Part shown: positions 22,315 to 32,715 of the stretch, in pieces
Layout: each line of letters begins with the position of its first letter
How positions within the stretch are numbered: position 1 is the first letter of the stretch
Source: Candidatus Thorarchaeota archaeon
Lineage (GTDB): Archaea; Asgardarchaeota; Thorarchaeia; Thorarchaeales; Thorarchaeaceae
Assembly: GCA_048882485.1 (NCBI GenBank)
Contig: JBHLRP010000001.1
Location: 96,001 to 160,000, forward strand
Direction of reading: 5' to 3'
Length of the DNA: 64,000 nucleotides
Translations under genes and position numbers: made by a program
The notes under the pieces: model-generated
Database searches by the model: none
Told to the model about the DNA's origin: nothing
Seen by the model: the letters and a program-made list of their open reading frames with translations, nothing else

Positions 22315-25095
22315 CTACTTCCAACGGCTAATCCTTTCAGAGCGAGGTCGAAATCCAGCTGAGAGCGAATGATTCCGAGCACGGAGTAGTACAATTCGGC
22401 CCTCCTTATTGCGAGTGTAAATCAAATCCATCTCACCGACGTACTTCTTCCATTGGGACGCAAAGGATTCAGCATATACCTTCTTGATTCCTAGGACAGT
22501 CGGAACGGCATGATAGTCCTGCCTAACAAAAGAGGTCCCTAACATTGATTTTCTTAGAAGAAGGTATCTAGGAGATCCGACTGGACCCAGTACTTCCCTG
22601 AGTGAACTAAGATATGTCGCTCTTTCTCTTCTTGTGCCACCTTCCACATGACAAAAAACTTCACCCTTCTTTCCTTCTTCCACTACAACTCTCATATCAT
22701 TAAATGAGGTTCTGACTATACCAACTTCGCAGAGGGTGGCTAGCACAGCTTTCCCGACTTGAGCAAGGCTAGATTTGATAGGGCCGTGCATGATAAACAG
22801 CCAGATCGCTTTCAGCGCTTTTGGAGCAAACCTGAGGATGAAGTAGAGAAATCCAAGAATCGGTAGAAATGATAGAAATGACAAGCCAAGGTTGCCAATC
22901 GGAAGGACCCAGGAGAATATTTGCCGAGCAGCAAAGAAGCCGAATAGGAACAGAACCTCCCAGGCTAGTGCTGAAATGGTATTCCTGAAAACAAAGCCCC
23001 GAGGGACTGGAAGTCGTGCTTTTTTAGCCTTCACTTCCTCTACAAGTCGGATTCCTTCTTCACCTCGCTTAAGGGAGGTCTCCCAGGCCAATTGTAGAGC
23101 TGTTCTATCCTTCGCCCTTGCTGTCATTGATGAGTTGATTTCCCGTACCTCGTCCTTATCAAAGGGCGGAACTCCAACCCCAAGGCGGCCGAACCCATTC
23201 TCTATAACTGATTCAACAAAGGATATTCCCAGAAACGCCTTAAAGCGTCTCTCCATAATGCGGTAGTCATTTCCTGCGCTCTCAGAGTCGAGATCCACAC
23301 AGACCAGGTGCCAGATATTGGATATCTTATCAGGCTGCTCTGGGTCAGTCCTGATAGCTCGTCCTCGCATTTGGTTGGACAACATATAGGATCCAACGAG
23401 ACTCGCTAGCACAAGTGAGTTGATTGATGGTGCATCCCATCCTTCTCCCAGGAGTGACTTTGTGCCTACAAGGACAGTTACCCCGCCCCTGGAGAAAAGC
23501 TCTGTTATGAGCTGTACTGCCTTTTGACTGTCTATGCCCTTGATAGTCACCATGGAGAATCTTGGGTCAGCAATGGGTTTGACTGAAACTGATTCGCGAA
23601 GGATTTCACAATCATCAGCACATTCAAGGAGGAGTTCAGTTGACTCAGTAGGAACAACTATCAAAGAACCACTAAGAACACCAAGTTTTATGTCACTAAG
23701 ATTCGATCGCCTAATCTCCTCAAAGATTGGCACCACACCAATCTTATCCAATTTCGGAAGGTCATGTTCACTCTTGGGGAGATAGGCTTTCCTTATGTAA
23801 TCCGTAAGGATGACCATGCGAAGGTTCTCACCAAGCGCCCTAAGTTCCATGGACACAATTGCTTGAACAGCATACAGCTTTGTGATGCTTCGTTTCAGAA
23901 CGGCATCCAGTTTCCGAGTACTACGCAGATTCACATCTCTTCGCTCAAGGGCATCAATTCGATAGAGTCTATCCCTTATTCTTTTCAGGACTGGAGACAA
24001 GTCCTTAGGGTCAACATCGGGGGGAAATAGCATCCCTTCGAGTAGAGTCTCCAGCCATTCCTTGTTGAACCAAGGAATTCCAAACTGTTCACCAGCAACG
24101 AGCTCGATTGCTTGCTTTGGTAGAATGACCTTGCGATGTTTCAGGTAGACAAGCATACTAGAAAAGAATGATGGGTCATCTAGAATTTCAATCACAAACG
24201 TTTCGGGATTGTTAAGCCAGGGGTGGTTCTTTACCTCTTTTAGGAACTCCTCATCTGACTCAAGGTCCTCAGCAAACTCATCAACTGCTTGCTTGAACTC
24301 CTTCAGCTTGTTTCCTTCAATAAGACTAGGATATGTAAAGAGAACGAGGTCTTGGTGAGGACAAAGATTCCCTTCCTGAACAAGCTCAGGCACAGAAACC
24401 TCCGCATCTATCGGGCCGCATAACTTCATGTATCGTTCCCACTCAAACATCGAAACATCATATGGCGGTGTTGCTGTCAGCGCCAGAACAGTGCTTTCCT
24501 TCAGTCCGTGCACAACTCTCGTCAGGCAACGCCACCAATTTGATCGGAGATGGTGGGCTTCGTCCAAGACAACTGTCTTGACCGATAACTCTTGTAGCAG
24601 TCTGGTTATGTTGTCCTCATTGAGTTCTTGTTCGTCATTCTCCGAGTCCTCATTATAGAATAGATCTTCATCCTCAGATTCGATTTCTTCAAGGTCGAGA
24701 TCATCGTCGTTTTCTAGGACTCCAGAGCATGCACTGTAGAGGCCTTGGTACGTTGAAACCGTCAGAAATCTCGGATGGTAGATATCAGTTGAAATCCAAT
24801 CCGGTGTTTCATTGCATTCAGGCATGAAAAAGTCCACAAGCCTTGAGACCCATTGGTCGCGGATTGCTAAGGTAGGAGCTAGGATAATCGATGGTTGGTT
24901 CAGCCTTCTCACAACTTCCAATCCGAGAAGCGTTTTTCCAGACCCTGGAGCCGCAACGACGTGTAGTCGGTTGTCGCCTAGGTATTCTTCAAGCTCACTC
25001 AAAACACGCGCTTGATATGGCCTCCAGGTATAGCGAAATTTCGTTTCTGGAGGAAATTCCTTCATTATCGGCAGGTCCTCACTCACCACGTTCAA
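22315..25095 (-). CDS. SF2 DEAD/DEAH-box (ResIII-like) helicase with C-terminal transmembrane hairpin
   Basis: WRPYQ, APGSGKT, LDEAHH, LTATPP, LLGEGWD, QMRGRAIR. Hydrophobic pair ALAWEVLFLFGFF...LPILGFLYFIL near the C-terminus. Confidence 0.9.
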   Translation of the reverse strand: MNVVSEDLPIMKEFPPETKFRYTWRPYQARVLSELEEYLGDNRLHVVAAPGSGKTLLGLEVVRRLNQPSIILAPTLAIRDQWVSRLVDFFMPECNETPDWISTDIYHPRFLTVSTYQGLYSACSGVLENDDDLDLEEIESEDEDLFYNEDSENDEQELNEDNITRLLQELSVKTVVLDEAHHLRSNWWRCLTRVVHGLKESTVLALTATPPYDVSMFEWERYMKLCGPIDAEVSVPELVQEGNLCPHQDLVLFTYPSLIEGNKLKEFKQAVDEFAEDLESDEEFLKEVKNHPWLNNPETFVIEILDDPSFFSSMLVYLKHRKVILPKQAIELVAGEQFGIPWFNKEWLETLLEGMLFPPDVDPKDLSPVLKRIRDRLYRIDALERRDVNLRSTRKLDAVLKRSITKLYAVQAIVSMELRALGENLRMVILTDYIRKAYLPKSEHDLPKLDKIGVVPIFEEIRRSNLSDIKLGVLSGSLIVVPTESTELLLECADDCEILRESVSVKPIADPRFSMVTIKGIDSQKAVQLITELFSRGGVTVLVGTKSLLGEGWDAPSINSLVLASLVGSYMLSNQMRGRAIRTDPEQPDKISNIWHLVCVDLDSESAGNDYRIMERRFKAFLGISFVESVIENGFGRLGVGVPPFDKDEVREINSSMTARAKDRTALQLAWETSLKRGEEGIRLVEEVKAKKARLPVPRGFVFRNTISALAWEVLFLFGFFAARQIFSWVLPIGNLGLSFLSFLPILGFLYFILRFAPKALKAIWLFIMHGPIKSSLAQVGKAVLATLCEVGIVRTSFNDMRVVVEEGKKGEVFCHVEGGTRRERATYLSSLREVLGPVGSPRYLLLRKSMLGTSFVRQDYHAVPTVLGIKKVYAESFASQWKKYVGEMDLIYTRNKEGRIVLLRARNHSLSAGFRPRSERISRWK

Positions 25096-25140: not shown

Positions 25141-25671
25141 TCAGTTTGAGTTGTGTCTTTTCAAGGGATGAGGATGGGATTCCTTTCCGAGGACCATTCG
25201 TGCAAGCTTGAGGCCTGGTTCCACTATCAAATGTTGAAGAATCATCCGAATTCGGTCATTTCGCCTAGCACGTCGAGCAATTGGCGGAGATACATCGTAG
25301 TAGGCCCGAATTGCGATGCGGCCTATTAGTCGGCTAGAAAGCCATTCGTCTCGGAATTCTCTCAGAAGGTCGATTTTCGGATGAAGTGTGGTACCAATAA
25401 CAGCTGTAGCTATGAAGCACTCTGTTTCATGTTCTCTACAGTAAACCTCATCATCCTCCACTCTCTTCTTGTGCTTTTCACAGAGGAAAACAGGTGTTTG
25501 GCATACGACGCAATGCCCTACTGGATCTATCCCTTCTCTGAGGAGGATTCCACATCTGTCGCATGAAACATGTGTGATAGCATCAGATAGGTTGGCTCCA
25601 CAATTGGCACACTCCGCATCGCCTAGGTCATTTATAGCACTACAATAACGGCACTCAACTTTCTCTGGCAT
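25141..25671 (-). CDS. Zinc-ribbon protein with CFI-box-CTERM-like C-terminal domain
   Basis: CRYC, CANC, CDRC, CVVC, C..H, C..H, followed by CFIATA..G......DLLR.FRD..L.....GR.....YY..SPPIA. Confidence 0.8.
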   Translation of the reverse strand: MPEKVECRYCSAINDLGDAECANCGANLSDAITHVSCDRCGILLREGIDPVGHCVVCQTPVFLCEKHKKRVEDDEVYCREHETECFIATAVIGTTLHPKIDLLREFRDEWLSSRLIGRIAIRAYYDVSPPIARRARRNDRIRMILQHLIVEPGLKLARMVLGKESHPHPLKRHNSN

Positions 25672-25877
25672 GCTTCGCTCCTCAGCTTGCATCCTCGTGA
25701 AGGAACCTTTCATTTGAACCTTCGAAATTGTCGATAAAAGGATTGCTTGAGGTGTTTAAATCAAGCGAAGCGAATTTATTAATGCAAATTCCCTTATATA
25801 AGACGCCACCACAGGACTTCTTCTGCCTTAGAAGACGCCAATTTTCTGTGGATTCGCGATGGTATTCGGGGATGTAG

Positions 25878-28800
25878 ATGCAGGAAAAAGGATTCGAGAG
25901 AGCGAGCCGTTGGGCAGATAGGATTCAGCTCTTCGCCCTTATTGCCGTACTTCTTATTGTGTCAGCAGCAGTCTGGCTCGCTTCCTATTTCCTGATTCAG
26001 CCCTTTGTGCAGGACAACCTTGTTCAGATGTTGATAGCTACATCAGTCAGCCTTGCACTTGCAGGATCCATTTTGGTATGGAGAAGAAGGGTGCTTTCAG
26101 GCACTATTCTTCTTTTCATGAGCGCAGGAGTCGTTGCTCTCTCGCTGGCTCTATTATGGCAATCAATGCAGGCTTCTATTCTCAGTCTTCATGGATTTCT
26201 ATTGGCATCGATTGTGATTTTGAATAGCTTGCGAAACAGGGAAGGAATCTCAAGTGAAACCTTTCGGAGAATCGGATGGGTGTTGGGTCCAGCAATCTTA
26301 CTGACCGGCCCACTTGCAATTGCGCTTTGGCTTTTGGAAATCACTTATGCTATCTACTTCATCTTAGCAGGATTCATTGGAGCTCTATCCGTCTACGCGA
26401 TTGCACTCCAATACTTGCAGAAGTATGCTCCATTGGGTGTACCTAATGTAATCATTGTTTCACTATCTCCATCTATGTTGACTGTTGACTTTCTGATCAA
26501 TTCCGCTACTCTGTCACCCATTCTATTGGTGTCCGGATTTCTAGTGACGCTGGGCGCAACACTACTCGTCACTTCCCAATGCGCCAGGCGTGTCCAATCA
26601 TGGGCAGGTAAAAGATGGGTTCGCAAATCGCAGAAGAAACGCAGAACCACTCTTCTTGAAGAGATTGGACTAGCAGCCGCCGTCGAAGAGGATGAGGAGG
26701 GTCCACCTGTTCCTGAAGAATGGATAATTGTTCCTGAGGACGCCAATACTCTGTCAGGGATTTCACTCATTCTTGTGGCCGCAGGCATTCCATCCATCTT
26801 CCTTTGGCTATCCGAGCCGAGTATATGGGGGACGGAAATTCATTTAGTTGGACCAATCGCATTCATCATTGGATTGCTGATCCTTGGACCATCTCCAGTT
26901 CTCTTCAGGTTGGGCGAGCGACTAACTAGAGATTCAGAATATATGGCTGTAAGAGCAATTGGTGTGGCAATAGTGTCTGTCGCTTCGGTTAGTGGCTTTC
27001 TTTGGACTCAGTACTATCTCTGGCCAGTGTTCATTTCATTCACCATTTCGGTTGTTTTGTTTGTCGCAGGAATGACAGGCCTATTTAGGTGGATACGAAG
27101 AATCTGGAGACGGATTTGGCTTTCAATAGTAGGTCGTCTTAGAAACCTCAAGGCATGGATTCTGCACAATATGCTCATTGCAGGGATTATTGCCGATCTA
27201 ACACTCTGCATCATTCTATTCAGCTACATCAACCCAATGCTGCAGTCATCGCCTGGATATCCGATTTCGATTCTAGGTGTACTTGCCGCTGTGTTTGCTG
27301 GAGTGGGGATTGTCGGTCTCTTAATCTTTCGAAGTCTGCCAAGCCGTCATCGCTATCTATCCATAGCGCTCCTCCTGTTTCTTGGTTCGTTGGCTTTGGT
27401 CACATTCTGGCAATTCTACTACTTTATGGCAGTTGATGTTTTGGATTCAGTATTCTATTCCTTACTCTGGTTCCTAGGTTCGATTGCTTTATTGAGGCTT
27501 GGATTCAATCGAATCCACACTGGATTAGCATATTTGCCCGGGGTACTTGCAGCATTATTCCTAACCTTGATGTTCGAAGACCCAATACAGTCGAACGAGC
27601 TCCCCATTCTGACGTTGCTGCTTGTTGCTATATTGCCTGGACCCATTCTCCATATCGAATACCGCAAAGCTGGAAGATGGATTTCAGATGCAGCAATAAG
27701 GGCTGGAAGAGCACTTGTGCTCGGAGTTCGCAGACTTGGAGCAGCCCTTCAACGTGCACTCATTTCCATAGGCCGATTCTTGCTGAAATTCATTCTCATA
27801 TCATGGGCCGTGTTTGTGCTTGCCGGACTAGCGTTCGTAGCTTGGCAATGGCTTGCGCCTTTCTACAGTTACGATCCACTACCGATAATTGGCTGGATTT
27901 CTTTGGCATTCTTCCTAGCTTATGCGCCTGCTATTGGACGGGCTGAAGAATCTCCTTCCTATCTCCTGCAAGTTTGCATATTGGGGGCCGCTCTGGGACT
28001 TGGAGTTCTTGTGTTCTTCTATACGGAAATACTGCATGCCGCAGTTCGTCTTCTTGCATCTGTATCCGCCACTTGCCTTGCGGTAACATTAGCCAAAAGC
28101 AAATTCTCTGAAACCATCAGAGTCTACTTCGTCCCAACAACCTGGCTCATGATACTTGCTCTGGTATGCTCATGGATATTCCTAGAAACCGTCATAAGTT
28201 TTGGAGAAATCCGGTCAGCTCTCCTAGCACTGGCTCTGTTTGGCTTCGGATTGCTGCCTCTAAGACTGATGGGCGGACCTCCTCGAATCGTCAATGCCCT
28301 CTATATCGCGCTCGCCGTTCCCTCCGCTACCATGTTGGCGCACTTATACTTTGCAAACTACGTTCTTAGTTTCATCCTTTTGCTTTTGGTGCCAATTCCC
28401 GTCGCCTATAGGCAATATTGGAGCGCAATTGTTTCAATTGGTACTGCTGCGCTGATGGCACTACGAGTTTTCCTAGCGTACATCGCAATCCATCTTGTAG
28501 CAGCTATTGCCCTGTTCTCAGTCATCATCGCTTCATTACTCGTTTATTACTTGGTGCCAATATTCTCCCTATATTCAGTGCCCATAGCACCGACCGCACT
28601 TACCTTCATCCTAGTCTGTATGTGCATCTGGCTTCCTGCTCTCCATCTTCGCAGATCTGAGAATCTGCGGCTCCATTCGATAGCACTCCTCATTCTTTGT
28701 GCAGTAGTCAGCCTTGACTTGATTGTGCTGCTTCAAATCACAGATCCAATTCTGAACATACTTGGCGCAGCTACTCTGTTTTCAGTTCTATTCTCAATAT

Positions 28801-31800
28801 CAACACCTCTGACCGTCCTCTTTAGGCAAAAGGCTCGATCTGCAGCATTCGCAATTAGTGCTGCATTGCTGCTAGGTCTTTATTTGGCATCATTCGACCC
28901 CATTTCCAAGGCGCTTTTAGCCGTATTTGGTCTTGGGCTCATTGCGACGCCAGTTCTCAGCAAAGCCAATAGAGTGCTTCTTGCCTATCCGGTTGTCACA
29001 GGTGCTTTGCTCGCTTTCCTGTTTTGGCACTTGTATTTGTATACACTCGACGCGACGCTTGTTATTGCTGGTTATGTGGCAGTTGAATCAATGCTTCTCT
29101 CAATACCTGAGCAGCTTCGGACCAAGGTGACATGGACTGTTTTTGCAGCCTCAACTGGAATTGCTATAGCACTAGTCTTGAGCCCATTCATGACTATCAA
29201 CTTGGTGCTTGCCGTGTTGGTGGCCCTTGAAATCCTCCGGTTCATGCCGAGTTTGATTATAGGTGAAAGGACCGGTATGCTCTTGGGCATCGCTCGTGCC
29301 GCATTGGTTGGCGTATCAGTTTATCTACTGATCATTTCATGGATACCTTTACCGAATCCAATTAGACAACCTTTGATGGAGTTAGGTCTCTCCAGTCTAG
29401 CTGCAACAATGATTCTCGCTATCTCAATGAAGAACTTCATTTCTTCGGAAAGATACGTAGGTCTTCAATCTATAGCTGTCTTCAACCTCTGCTTCGTGAT
29501 ATTCTCATCCCTCTGGGAAATCATGTCCGTCGATGTCCTATATTCTGCATACATGGCAGGAATCCCGCTTCTTGCATTCACTGGAGTTCTTTCTAAGGGA
29601 GATACATTCAAGCGAGAGAGCTGGATGACGTCCTGCCTTGTAGCAACTGCGATGGTTTCATTCAGCTGGTTTACGTACTATCGTTCAATCGAATCTCTGT
29701 GGCTATGTGTTTCAACAGCTGTCTTTCTATTGAGTGCTCTAAGGCTAACCGATCCCAAGGGACTTGAGGACCTCCCAGGAGTCACTAACATTGCGATTGC
29801 TACTATGATTATCATGCTAGAGGTAATTTGGATCTGGCATTCCATGCTGGTTTTCCTCTCTGACATGAATGTCGTTCTCGCAGGAGTAGGCTTACTTCTA
29901 ACTCCCGTGATTCTGATGCCTTTCAGAGGTGCGATATCATGGGATATGTTTCGAATTCTATGGAGTGCCGTCAGTGCTATAATAGCAATATCATTAGAGT
30001 CCCTCATAACCGGTTGGGACTTGTATAGCCTATCCCTGCCTACAGAGCCATACCTTGCCGCAGGCATCATTCTATCATCATTCTCAGCTCTATCCACACC
30101 CGCCTATCTCTTGATTGAGGGCAAATTGGGAATCACTGAAAACCATCTTAGCGCTCGATTTAGCTGGAGTCCCAGTCTTGCTGGATGGGCCGCGATTGGT
30201 GCACAAATAGGCTCAAATCTCCTTGGAGAAATGCGTTTCATGCTGACGGTGGGAGGACTTGGATTTGCACTAGCTCTGCTTATCCTCTATCTTATCACAC
30301 CTGCAAGGCCAAGGACGCTCTTCATAGCTGATATCATCATGTTGGCCTCAGCCGTCGCTGGAGGAGTATGGGTTTGGGCTGAGCCGATACTCGGGCCTGC
30401 AGAGTTGATTGCACTCTTTCTCTTCGTGTGGTATATGCTGAGTTTGCCATTGACCCTTGCAGCGACAATCACTTTCCTTGGATGGCTAGCGACAAAGGGT
30501 AAGCAACTAGCTGCTGCATTTTCTCGATTTCTATCTTGGGCAAAGGAAATCTTTAGGAATAATAAGGCTATGTTTGCGACTATTCTACCTGTCTTGATAG
30601 GGGGTTTTGTATTCTTGTGGATTTATGATCCCTTGGATACATCAGCCATTCTTGGACTGCCGCACAGGAATTTAGCTTTCTCGATCAGCATAAGTCTGGT
30701 GCTAGTAGGCCTGTTATATTGGTTTGAAGCAGCTGCGCTAGAGCCGCAAATCGGTGATGAGCTTCAGTCGCCATCTGCAATCCTCACTGGATCTGGCGTA
30801 TACAACCTCATACTTCTCATGTCCCTAACAGCAGAATCCTACGAACTTCTTGAGCTAATATTCAGTATATCTTTAGCTGCATCTCTTGGTTTGATAGCGA
30901 CTCTTGCACAAGTCAGTTCGTTTTCCCAGAAGGTATGGATGAGAAAGAATGTAGGATGTCTGGGGCTCTCGCTATTTTTAGCAGCATTGACAGGATTCAC
31001 CTCCATCACTGGCTTACTACCGATGCATGCACTAGTATATGCAATTCTTATTCTCCTTGTAGTAGAAACACCTGTGTTTTGGACACAAGTGAAGGCTTTC
31101 TTCGCTATCCTTAGTCGCTACGGTGCAGTCATTATCAGAGCCATTAAGAATCTTGGAAGCTTCCTGCTTAGAATCTTCAGAAGCTTCGGATATGTCATGT
31201 GGACTTTCTTTGCTTTGCTCTTTGTAGTTGTCATAGGAATACTGAGTAGGCCTCTCTTCAGCGAGCTTCTGAATATGCCGCCTACTGGACTATTCTATGA
31301 GGTTCCAGGTTTCTCTATACCGACTGCAATCATTGGGCTATTGATGCTTTTCATTGCAATCGTACGGCGTCGTGTCAGAACACGGTTCGGCATTCTAAGT
31401 GGACTTTATGCCGCATTCGGTGGAGGAATCACTGCAATTGTGTTTCTCTTTGATCATGGGTATCAAGTTCTATCCCTATTCTCCGCGATAATTGCAATAT
31501 GCGGAACTGGCCTCATCCTCAAGGGAGAGCTTCAGCTTGATTCAAGGCGCATAACCTTACTCTGGCTACCAATCCCACCAAGCTTATCGGCGTCACTGTT
31601 CTACTACATGCTACCAAGTTCCAGCACACTGGATTCATTTTTACTTGCGATATTACTATCATTCACTCCAGCATTCATGCTGTACCTACTCTCAACCACA
31701 GTGAATTGGATTCCGAAGGCTCAGAGAGAATTACTCTGGAGTCTATTAGCCGTCATGACCGGAATCATCGCATACCTCGGTTCATACATTTTGATCATAC

Positions 31801-32135
31801 CCCCATTTGACCAAGTCGCTGGGATTTATCTAGGAGTCTTTGTGGCTTCCGTAATCTTCTATCCAGTGACAGCGAGAAGTGCAAGGCAGCTGTTCTTATC
31901 CCCTCTCTTCTTTGCATTGACGGGATTTGCATATACGTTTGTCCTAGGTCCTGTATATAGAAGTCTGCTGCTAGCCACGGCCGCATTTCTCTTCTTTGTG
32001 AGTCGTTACATTAAGGAGAAGGAAGCAATAAGCCCAAGGCTAGTTTATTTGCGTCTGACTGTGCTAATTGCTCTTGTGGCATCTATTGCGGCGTTTGGCA
32101 TAACGACTGGGCTTGAGATACTATCAGTTGGCTGA
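25878..32135 (+). CDS. Giant polytopic membrane protein of unknown function (2085 aa)
   Basis: Uninterrupted 6.26-kb ORF, hydrophobic throughout (roughly 55-65 TM by eye), no recognisable soluble domain. Confidence 0.85.
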   Translation: MQEKGFERASRWADRIQLFALIAVLLIVSAAVWLASYFLIQPFVQDNLVQMLIATSVSLALAGSILVWRRRVLSGTILLFMSAGVVALSLALLWQSMQASILSLHGFLLASIVILNSLRNREGISSETFRRIGWVLGPAILLTGPLAIALWLLEITYAIYFILAGFIGALSVYAIALQYLQKYAPLGVPNVIIVSLSPSMLTVDFLINSATLSPILLVSGFLVTLGATLLVTSQCARRVQSWAGKRWVRKSQKKRRTTLLEEIGLAAAVEEDEEGPPVPEEWIIVPEDANTLSGISLILVAAGIPSIFLWLSEPSIWGTEIHLVGPIAFIIGLLILGPSPVLFRLGERLTRDSEYMAVRAIGVAIVSVASVSGFLWTQYYLWPVFISFTISVVLFVAGMTGLFRWIRRIWRRIWLSIVGRLRNLKAWILHNMLIAGIIADLTLCIILFSYINPMLQSSPGYPISILGVLAAVFAGVGIVGLLIFRSLPSRHRYLSIALLLFLGSLALVTFWQFYYFMAVDVLDSVFYSLLWFLGSIALLRLGFNRIHTGLAYLPGVLAALFLTLMFEDPIQSNELPILTLLLVAILPGPILHIEYRKAGRWISDAAIRAGRALVLGVRRLGAALQRALISIGRFLLKFILISWAVFVLAGLAFVAWQWLAPFYSYDPLPIIGWISLAFFLAYAPAIGRAEESPSYLLQVCILGAALGLGVLVFFYTEILHAAVRLLASVSATCLAVTLAKSKFSETIRVYFVPTTWLMILALVCSWIFLETVISFGEIRSALLALALFGFGLLPLRLMGGPPRIVNALYIALAVPSATMLAHLYFANYVLSFILLLLVPIPVAYRQYWSAIVSIGTAALMALRVFLAYIAIHLVAAIALFSVIIASLLVYYLVPIFSLYSVPIAPTALTFILVCMCIWLPALHLRRSENLRLHSIALLILCAVVSLDLIVLLQITDPILNILGAATLFSVLFSISTPLTVLFRQKARSAAFAISAALLLGLYLASFDPISKALLAVFGLGLIATPVLSKANRVLLAYPVVTGALLAFLFWHLYLYTLDATLVIAGYVAVESMLLSIPEQLRTKVTWTVFAASTGIAIALVLSPFMTINLVLAVLVALEILRFMPSLIIGERTGMLLGIARAALVGVSVYLLIISWIPLPNPIRQPLMELGLSSLAATMILAISMKNFISSERYVGLQSIAVFNLCFVIFSSLWEIMSVDVLYSAYMAGIPLLAFTGVLSKGDTFKRESWMTSCLVATAMVSFSWFTYYRSIESLWLCVSTAVFLLSALRLTDPKGLEDLPGVTNIAIATMIIMLEVIWIWHSMLVFLSDMNVVLAGVGLLLTPVILMPFRGAISWDMFRILWSAVSAIIAISLESLITGWDLYSLSLPTEPYLAAGIILSSFSALSTPAYLLIEGKLGITENHLSARFSWSPSLAGWAAIGAQIGSNLLGEMRFMLTVGGLGFALALLILYLITPARPRTLFIADIIMLASAVAGGVWVWAEPILGPAELIALFLFVWYMLSLPLTLAATITFLGWLATKGKQLAAAFSRFLSWAKEIFRNNKAMFATILPVLIGGFVFLWIYDPLDTSAILGLPHRNLAFSISISLVLVGLLYWFEAAALEPQIGDELQSPSAILTGSGVYNLILLMSLTAESYELLELIFSISLAASLGLIATLAQVSSFSQKVWMRKNVGCLGLSLFLAALTGFTSITGLLPMHALVYAILILLVVETPVFWTQVKAFFAILSRYGAVIIRAIKNLGSFLLRIFRSFGYVMWTFFALLFVVVIGILSRPLFSELLNMPPTGLFYEVPGFSIPTAIIGLLMLFIAIVRRRVRTRFGILSGLYAAFGGGITAIVFLFDHGYQVLSLFSAIIAICGTGLILKGELQLDSRRITLLWLPIPPSLSASLFYYMLPSSSTLDSFLLAILLSFTPAFMLYLLSTTVNWIPKAQRELLWSLLAVMTGIIAYLGSYILIIPPFDQVAGIYLGVFVASVIFYPVTARSARQLFLSPLFFALTGFAYTFVLGPVYRSLLLATAAFLFFVSRYIKEKEAISPRLVYLRLTVLIALVASIAAFGITTGLEILSVG

Positions 32136-32648
32136 GAAATCAGCTCTCACCCTGGATAGAAATTCATCAGCCTCTCCTGAATTCCTAAGGACGATTATTG
32201 TCTTGCTCTCAGAGTTCTGTGATAAGATCTTGTCAATTACTGGACGACTTCTCTTTGGATAGTTCCATATCCACTTAATGAAGTCAAGGTCTATCTTCTC
32301 ATAGCAACCTGGAGCCAACTCTGGTCGGACCTGTCCTCTATGCAAAAGCCGTCTCTTGAACACACGCCAGAAGGACACTCTTCTTGGCACATCAAGGAAA
32401 ATTGCTGTATCAGCACGCTTGATCCTCATTTCAAGCGTAGATGAATAGTTACCATCCATAACCCAGCTATCCTGCGAAATTAATTCGCCCACAACCTCAA
32501 ACCAATCTTCCTGGGGTGTTTCAGCCCAGTCTGGTTTCCAATAATATGAATCTAGGTGAATGCATGGAACACCTATCAAGTCAGCAAGATTCTCTGCAAA
32601 GGTGGACTTTCCGGATCCAGATGGCCCAAGCACTAGGACGCGTTTCAT
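32124..32648 (-). CDS. P-loop kinase, FlaR/topology-modulation (adenylate-kinase-like) family
   Basis: GPSGSGKST, IHLD.YYW.P.W, WVMDGNY, RPELAPGC.EKID. Confidence 0.88.
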   Translation of the reverse strand: MKRVLVLGPSGSGKSTFAENLADLIGVPCIHLDSYYWKPDWAETPQEDWFEVVGELISQDSWVMDGNYSSTLEMRIKRADTAIFLDVPRRVSFWRVFKRRLLHRGQVRPELAPGCYEKIDLDFIKWIWNYPKRSRPVIDKILSQNSESKTIIVLRNSGEADEFLSRVRADFSAN

Positions 32649-32715
32649 TGGCAATCAGATGATTTGCCCCTAGAGATAAGCCCACCGATATGTGTGCACC
32701 TTTTAACCGGGGATA

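Follow-up and report, generated by a model that had tools for sequence, protein, structure and literature searches.

The locus considered here raises the question of what a protein of 2085 amino acids may do when nearly all of its chain is embedded in the membrane. The protein is encoded by a single open reading frame (ORF) of 2085 codons (25878..32135, + strand) in a stretch of 64,000 nucleotides, hereafter the window, which corresponds to positions 96,001 to 160,000 of contig JBHLRP010000001.1 (GenBank assembly GCA_048882485.1) of a Candidatus Thorarchaeota archaeon. A model that saw only the letters and their translated ORFs (the sequence-only reading) had singled it out as an undescribed, all-membrane protein built of repeats, and our analysis bears this out, with a significant internal repeat and no match to a known family. 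Moreover, all 16 loci with upstream DNA, this window included, have a divergently oriented gene just upstream of the giant one, which encodes a small zinc-ribbon protein with a CFI-box domain. We tentatively propose that the giant protein is a lineage-specific polytopic membrane platform, which may act with this cytosolic protein or be regulated by it. The partner gene, the variation of the unit copy number in related proteins and the stronger conservation of the C-terminal module had all escaped the sequence-only reading.

The giant membrane protein and its repeat units

The giant gene codes for a protein and is under purifying selection. Its orthologues share the start of the ORF (MQEKGFERA), full-length ones exist at 27-83% identity, and the ratio of nonsynonymous to synonymous substitution rates (dN/dS) is 0.16 and 0.15 in comparison with two close orthologues. 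The existence of full-length relatives and these low ratios together indicate a real protein-coding gene. It is present as a single copy in its metagenome-assembled genome (MAG; 3.96 Mb in 157 contigs, 90.5% complete). Its GC content is that of the surrounding window, and its AT skew is strongly negative because of T-rich hydrophobic codons, Leu, Ala, Ile, Val and Phe constituting 53% of the protein.

About 70% of the chain is transmembrane (TM) helix. We detected 65 hydropathy peaks, and two AlphaFold half-models of ~1100 residues each, of moderate confidence (predicted local distance difference test score, pLDDT, 70-71; predicted template modelling score, pTM, 0.41-0.48), are all-helical and contain ~80 helices. 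From the model helices we curated 67 TM segments, a count possibly off by one or two near the C-terminus, and alternated the loops from an N-terminus placed inside. In this topology, the inside loops hold 87 Lys/Arg in 446 residues and the outside loops only 3 in 181. As this bias holds over the entire chain, the hairpin-by-hairpin topology seems robust. The cytoplasmic face, on which the N-terminus is predicted to lie, would form a basic surface. The 34 predicted outer loops amount to 181 residues, with a mean of 5 and a maximum of 19, and the protein would thus expose almost nothing extracellularly. The sole hydrophilic stretch longer than ~45 residues is a loop at residues 237-289 (26586..26744, + strand), which is predicted to be cytoplasmic, has a basic half followed by an acidic half and ends in a conserved EW.I motif; the pLDDT drops below 50 at residues 264-275. 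These results agree with the earlier description of a protein with dozens of TM helices and no soluble catalytic domain.

To look for internal repeats, 160-residue slices of a 20-sequence alignment were compared with HHalign, using as control 276 comparisons against reversed slices, the best of which scored 33.7. Residues 577-720 aligned to 829-956 with a score of 62.4 (E 8e-10), and four further pairs exceeded the control (490-640 with 748-874, 54.0; 659-764 with 895-1000, 45.8; 404-510 with 845-949, 39.1; 358-476 with 802-917, 38.9). The protein contains three repeat units, located at residues ~400-570, 592-765 and 841-1005, and mutually 11-16% identical. Each opens with an amphipathic helix (AH), which is followed by five core TM helices and by one to three linker TM helices. 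Unit A (residues 400-570; 27075..27587, + strand) begins with AH1 (FRWIRRIWRRIW...), continues with five TM helices and is separated from the next unit by one more. Unit B (592-765; 27651..28172, + strand) consists of AH2 and TM helices and is followed by three more TM helices before unit C (841-1005; 28398..28892, + strand), which consists of AH3 and its TM helices. The number of TM helices from one unit to the next is even, and the repeats are thus parallel. The sequence-only reading had noticed that its first three amphipathic segments precede a similar TM-P..PI-TM-R..SIALL pattern at spacings of about 190-250 residues; both motifs are visible in the alignment of the units, and the offsets are ~192 and ~249 residues.

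A hidden Markov model (HMM) of the unit, with 169 positions and trained without the extra copies of the relatives, delimits the same three units and finds two copies in a relative of 1753 amino acids, three in proteins of 2033-2150, four in those of 2241-2306 and five in one of 2447. The extra copies obtain 32-84 bits, whereas no reversed control exceeds 12.5. A copy number of two to five thus accounts for the length classes of the family, from 1753 to 2447 amino acids. In the C-terminal half of the giant protein, the segments around AH4 and AH5 gave an HHalign score of 27.7 when compared with each other (1505-1587 with 1713-1795), below the control. The unit profile aligned end to end with residues 1732-1892 (score 44.1, probability 91%), whereas reversed windows bearing an amphipathic helix reach 49. 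We therefore rejected units four and five as significant repeats, neither score being above the reversed controls; AH5 may mark where a diverged fourth unit (1732-1892) begins.

At least five basic amphipathic segments had been noticed in the sequence, and all five were recovered where they had been placed, the third being poor in basic residues. In the curated topology they all lie on the cytoplasmic side. AH1 (residues 402-431) carries 8 Lys/Arg, has a helical moment of 1.28 and a conservation score of 0.60, and contains the invariant R407. AH2 (595-637) carries 10 Lys/Arg and is 14-77 residues long among relatives; AH3 (844-874) has only 2, against a family median of 4. AH4 (1531-1562; 30468..30563, + strand) and AH5 (1734-1765; 31077..31172, + strand) each have 5, and AH5 leads into the C-terminal module. 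AH2 and AH4 are conserved neither in sequence nor in length. Nevertheless, the basic amphipathic character of AH1-AH5 is retained at 27-35% identity even without sequence conservation: over 37 relatives, the median number of Lys plus Arg is 9 for AH2, 4 for AH3, 3 for AH4 and 5 for AH5, and the median peak moments are 1.3-1.7. In two distant relatives (L017 and P0015), the counterparts of AH2 and AH3 have grown to 65-77 residues of Gly/Arg/Ile repeats with an 11-residue period (IRIGSVIRSGL/IRIGGIIYRGA). Such a periodicity is typical of helices lying flat on a membrane surface.

The repeats are flanked by two modules and followed by a long middle region. The N-terminal module (residues 1-401; 25878..27080, + strand) comprises 12 TM helices and two conserved cytoplasmic motifs, at 7-46 and 323-362, with invariant R344, R351 and E354. 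The middle region (1006-1530; 28893..30467, + strand) has ~19 TM helices and no significant repeat. The C-terminal module (1766-2085; 31173..32132, + strand), with ~11 TM helices, an invariant RR pair (1830-1831) and an FFALTGFAYTF helix, is better conserved in the family than any other part. Within it lies the longest outer loop (1790-1808, SRPLFSELLNMPPTGLFYE; 31245..31301, + strand), which is highly conserved (invariant F1794, S1795, M1800 and Y1807) and forms the only sizeable element predicted to face outwards.

We mapped conservation in 40-residue windows over 28 sequences from which close orthologues had been removed. The highest value was obtained at 2005-2044 (0.73), followed by 1792-1831 (0.68), which spans the longest outer loop and R1830 and R1831, then by 323-362 (0.65), 394-433 around AH1 (0.61) and 7-46 (0.57). 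Conservation is thus highest in the C-terminal module (0.55 as a whole) and not in the repeats. Conserved motifs predicted to be cytoplasmic include residues 7-46, 344-356, 403-427, 1830-1838 and 2043-2059. In BLASTP, the distant 1753-residue relative aligns only to residues 281-604 and 1739-2076. This indicates that the core of the protein is made up of the two terminal modules and of AH1 with unit A, and that the middle can expand. Conserved polar residues lie inside the helices at H105, D440, E1070, E1118 and E1315, the last three in the middle region. The C-terminal module has no conserved polar or charged residue inside the membrane, and most of its invariant positions are occupied by Gly, Pro or aromatic residues.

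None of our searches placed the protein in a known family. Pfam and NCBIfam scans gave no match above cut-off; matches to PGF-CTERM (15 bits) and DUF7369 (13 bits) lay below their cut-offs, on ordinary TM helices, and were discarded. PADLOC recognized neither the giant protein nor its partner. Profiles of the two halves compared with all PDB sequences returned no match and one irrelevant match, respectively. Recognition in the ESM Atlas was low for the whole protein and for the C-terminal module (best scores 0.84 and 0.77, at chance level), and Foldseek and VIA-align, applied to the two moderate-confidence half-models, produced only noise, with no Piezo chain listed.

The divergent partner and the distribution of the family

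The partner gene (25141..25713, - strand) encodes two CxxC...CxxC zinc ribbons, a CxxH...CxxH site and a CFI-box domain, with no TM segment. Its orthologues are 162-178 residues long and begin with MPEKVEC; the annotated ORF is probably 14 codons too long, and the true start is most likely Met15 (ATG at 25671), giving a protein of 176 amino acids. Residues 99-163 match NF041770 (CFI-box-CTERM) with 76.3 bits against a cut-off of 40, over model positions 1-65 of 69, and the invariant CFIATAV.GT...LR.FRD motif is present. The partner is the only CFI-box protein of its genome. Its profile showed only generic zinc-ribbon resemblances in the PDB (eS27, ArnA; E at least 0.058). Between the two genes lies a shared intergenic region of 206 bp (25672..25877) with AT-rich, TATA-like boxes (TTTAAA near 25755 and TTATATAA near 25796), which we read as putative promoters.

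Genomes with the giant gene also contain orthologues of the partner (E below 1e-50). Across loci, identity amounts to 47-95% for the partner, but in most of them to only 27-34% for the giant protein. No further neighbour is conserved across the family, and the surrounding genes are ordinary housekeeping genes that differ between clades. We considered as further parts of the system a helicase, a HEAT protein, an AAA-like kinase and an ABC-2 transporter, and dismissed all four, as their proximity is limited to the closest relatives; an SSB-like OB protein was likewise set aside, being located downstream in one other clade only.

Several of these neighbours can be described in their own right. 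A 926-residue SF2/ResIII helicase (22315-25095, - strand) adjoins the zinc-ribbon gene in the window, and at locus L021 it stands on the other side of the giant gene. An AAA_18-like P-loop protein of 176 amino acids (32124-32654) overlaps the end of the giant gene by 12 bp. It is unrelated to the gene found at this place in the other clade, which encodes the SSB-like OB-fold protein (PF21473, 160-185 residues) and is convergent, just downstream of the giant gene (L012, 14303-14791, - strand; equivalents in 8 loci).

The family is confined to one lineage. Relatives of 2033-2447 amino acids range from 83% down to 27% identity and the 1753-residue one is at 21%, all of them from Thorarchaeota/Promethearchaeota MAGs. 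Thirty-seven full-length collinear members (21-83% identity) share the N-terminal module, AH1 and the C-terminal module (alignments A1-A3). When a profile of the C-terminal half was run exhaustively with HMMER against 1.84 billion representative proteins, the 38 proteins retrieved were all family members or their fragments, and the N-terminal half profile, used against shorter proteins, found only Thorarchaeota fragments. We screened 400 Asgard genomes: of the 85 in the gene's own GTDB family, 25 have it, whereas it was found in none of the 315 from 32 other families. Even within the family its distribution is patchy (4 of 16 genomes in the genus of the window, 5 of 28 in another). Several near-complete genomes with few contigs do not have the gene, and incompleteness of MAGs thus cannot explain its absence. 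Where present, it occurs once per genome, and across nine genera it seems to have been inherited vertically.

Different stages of loss can be recognized. In the single-contig genome G320, the giant gene has been cleanly deleted: the SSB-like OB gene and the zinc-ribbon gene lie 80 bp apart (L027, G320:C1, 8692-9815), and the giant gene was not found elsewhere in that genome. Genome G387 has a 308-residue ORF (L025, 8046-8972) that is 40% identical to residues 1786-2074 and is flanked by unrelated genes for an amidohydrolase and a PHP-domain protein; its sister G388 (L026) has no more than a 56-residue trace at the syntenic position, and the genus of these two genomes yielded no orthologue of the zinc-ribbon protein. 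We considered the 308-residue ORF as a free-standing C-terminal module and discarded this, since a metagenome fragment 97.7% identical to it extends at least 191 residues further upstream and the sister holds only the 56-residue remnant. It is probably a decaying, truncated relic. In two other genomes the giant gene contains in-frame stops (TGA and TAG at L010, genome G318; one TAG at L021, genome G384), so that these copies would be either pseudogenes or assembly errors. A 337-residue metagenome protein (P0041) joins an unrelated, soluble-looking N-terminus of 80 residues to a segment 81% identical to residues 1829-2083, and would be either a chimeric assembly or a rearranged copy.

Possible functions of the two-gene module

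The reading that we prefer, although we would give it somewhat less than an even chance, is that of a giant polytopic platform working with the divergently encoded zinc-ribbon/CFI-box protein or under its regulation. The protein would form a large, flat structure within the membrane, whose size would be set by the variable number of repeat units. Its amphipathic helices would be embedded in the cytoplasmic leaflet, binding the head groups of anionic lipids. Together with the conserved cytoplasmic motifs, the C-terminal module and its single conserved outer loop may be where the protein does its work and where the zinc-ribbon protein docks. Such a module would organize or sense the membrane, as a scaffold or a sensor, rather than catalyse a known transport reaction, and the absence of any detected catalytic or transporter family (Pfam, NCBIfam, PADLOC and PDB profiles) speaks for it. 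Alternatively, the zinc-ribbon protein may be a transcriptional regulator of the module.

Several observations weigh against the platform. A divergently encoded partner could equally be a regulator or a subunit, and genome G320 keeps the zinc-ribbon gene after deletion of the giant gene, indicating that the partner does not strictly depend on it. The giant gene itself is dispensable, since most genomes lack it even within its own genus. The polar residues embedded in the membrane (H105, D440, E1070, E1118 and E1315) would equally fit a path for ions or substrates. Finally, the half-models are of only moderate confidence and do not give the arrangement of the modules. A bolder version, which we consider improbable, is that the two genes form a new prokaryotic membrane machine in which variable arm units would deform the membrane or read its curvature or tension and signal through the C-terminal core to the zinc-ribbon partner; Asgard archaea would then have evolved, independently, a functional counterpart of Piezo.

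A Piezo-like channel, mechanosensitive or gated in another way, appears unlikely, although the design logic is the same. In such a channel, the repeat units would form curved arms held by in-plane helices, and the C-terminal module, perhaps oligomeric, would be the pore. The tandem arrangement of TM units that each begin with an amphipathic helix on the cytoplasmic side, the better conserved C-terminal module, the intramembrane carboxylates and the outer loop at 1790-1808, which could be re-entrant, are all compatible with this view. However, no sequence match to Piezo families or chains was obtained, no Piezo chain is among the structure matches, the units have five to eight TM helices instead of four, the short outer loops leave no extracellular cap, and the C-terminal module lacks a conserved charge inside the membrane.

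Somewhat less probable still is a very large transporter or lipid-handling protein, such as a fused permease, a scramblase or a lipid-modifying enzyme, that has diverged too far for profile methods. The membrane-embedded polar residues listed above would suit such a protein, and internal duplication is common in transporters, but their secondary members typically have inverted repeats, whereas those described here are parallel. Moreover, Pfam, NCBIfam and PDB profiles gave no match at E <=1 beyond noise, and no ATPase or energy-coupling partner occupies a conserved position. The sequence-only reading would have been refuted by the lack of a significant internal repeat or by a confident match to a fused transporter family; such a repeat is present, and Pfam, NCBIfam, PADLOC and PDB sequence profiles revealed no such match. 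Least probable of all is an accessory two-gene conflict system (antiviral or abortive infection), in which the zinc-ribbon protein would sense a signal and the giant protein would perturb the membrane: the compact two-gene unit, its patchy distribution with repeated loss within genera (4/16, 5/28) and the deletions, truncations and in-frame stops in several lineages are suggestive, but neither protein matches PADLOC, the neighbours are housekeeping genes that differ by clade, composition is uniform with the surrounding genome, the single-copy gene looks vertically kept across nine genera and a 6.3-kb effector with 67 TM helices would be very costly.

If the predicted topology is right, the giant protein is the most membrane-spanning single polypeptide known to us (~67 TM helices); to our knowledge, the 38 of Piezo are the largest TM count of a characterized chain. 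It may offer a new fold or set of folds to membrane-protein structural biology, and it constitutes a natural case of variation in module copy number inside the membrane. The searches detected no relative outside a single Asgard family, among the 400 genomes and, for the C-terminal half, among the 1.84 billion representatives. Asgard archaea are the closest known archaeal relatives of eukaryotes, and the function of the protein could bear on membrane organization or sensing in this group. Since the gene is dispensable in many relatives, this function would be a niche-specific accessory one and not part of core Asgard biology.

Comparison with known membrane systems

The system that most resembles the giant protein in its gross design is Piezo. 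Piezo channels have 38 TM helices per protomer, arranged in nine units of four TM helices, together with an extracellular cap, a beam and an anchor. Like Piezo1 and Piezo2, the giant protein is a very large chain, nearly all of it membrane-embedded; it is built of tandem TM-bundle units with in-plane amphipathic helices on the cytoplasmic side, and its C-terminal part is better conserved than its repeated part. In contrast to Piezo, its units combine one amphipathic helix with five to eight TM helices and occur in two to five copies, and it has neither cap, beam nor anchor domain, its longest outer loop being of 19 residues. It has ~67 TM helices instead of 38, is archaeal and is confined to one family. 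No similarity to Piezo was detected in sequence or in fold, the fold lists coming from the moderate-confidence half-models. The parallel with Piezo had been presented from the outset as an analogy only, with no sequence homology, and it stays at that level: every Piezo-defining feature that could be tested here is absent, and the comparison is one of design.

Two other membrane systems deserve comparison. The DUF2339 proteins (PF10101) are likewise long, repeat-built and all-membrane, and they form the nearest Pfam-named cluster in the ESM Atlas, at a score (0.76) that the calibration of the tool itself places at chance level. However, their Pfam model has no match in the giant protein at E <=1, and they are bacterial and much shorter. 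The antiporter-like arms of complex I and Mrp share with it a long array of TM modules, conserved acidic residues embedded in the membrane and lateral helices running along the membrane. In contrast to them, the giant protein consists of one chain and lacks partner subunits in conserved position, and no Proton_antipo or Mrp match was obtained. More broadly, no curated family model for MFS, RND/MMPL, ABC-2, APC or Mrp/complex-I antiporter-like proteins matches in Pfam, NCBIfam or PADLOC.

In the literature library searched, we found no paper on the CFI-box or on the giant protein. In other CFI-box-CTERM proteins (NF041770), the domain follows FN3, TPR or cold-shock domains, whereas here it comes after three cytosolic zinc sites, and the whole protein is ~176 amino acids long and has neither signal peptide nor TM segment. 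The strict pairing of this protein with the giant membrane protein offers a first functional handle on the CFI-box domain, which is still uncharacterized.

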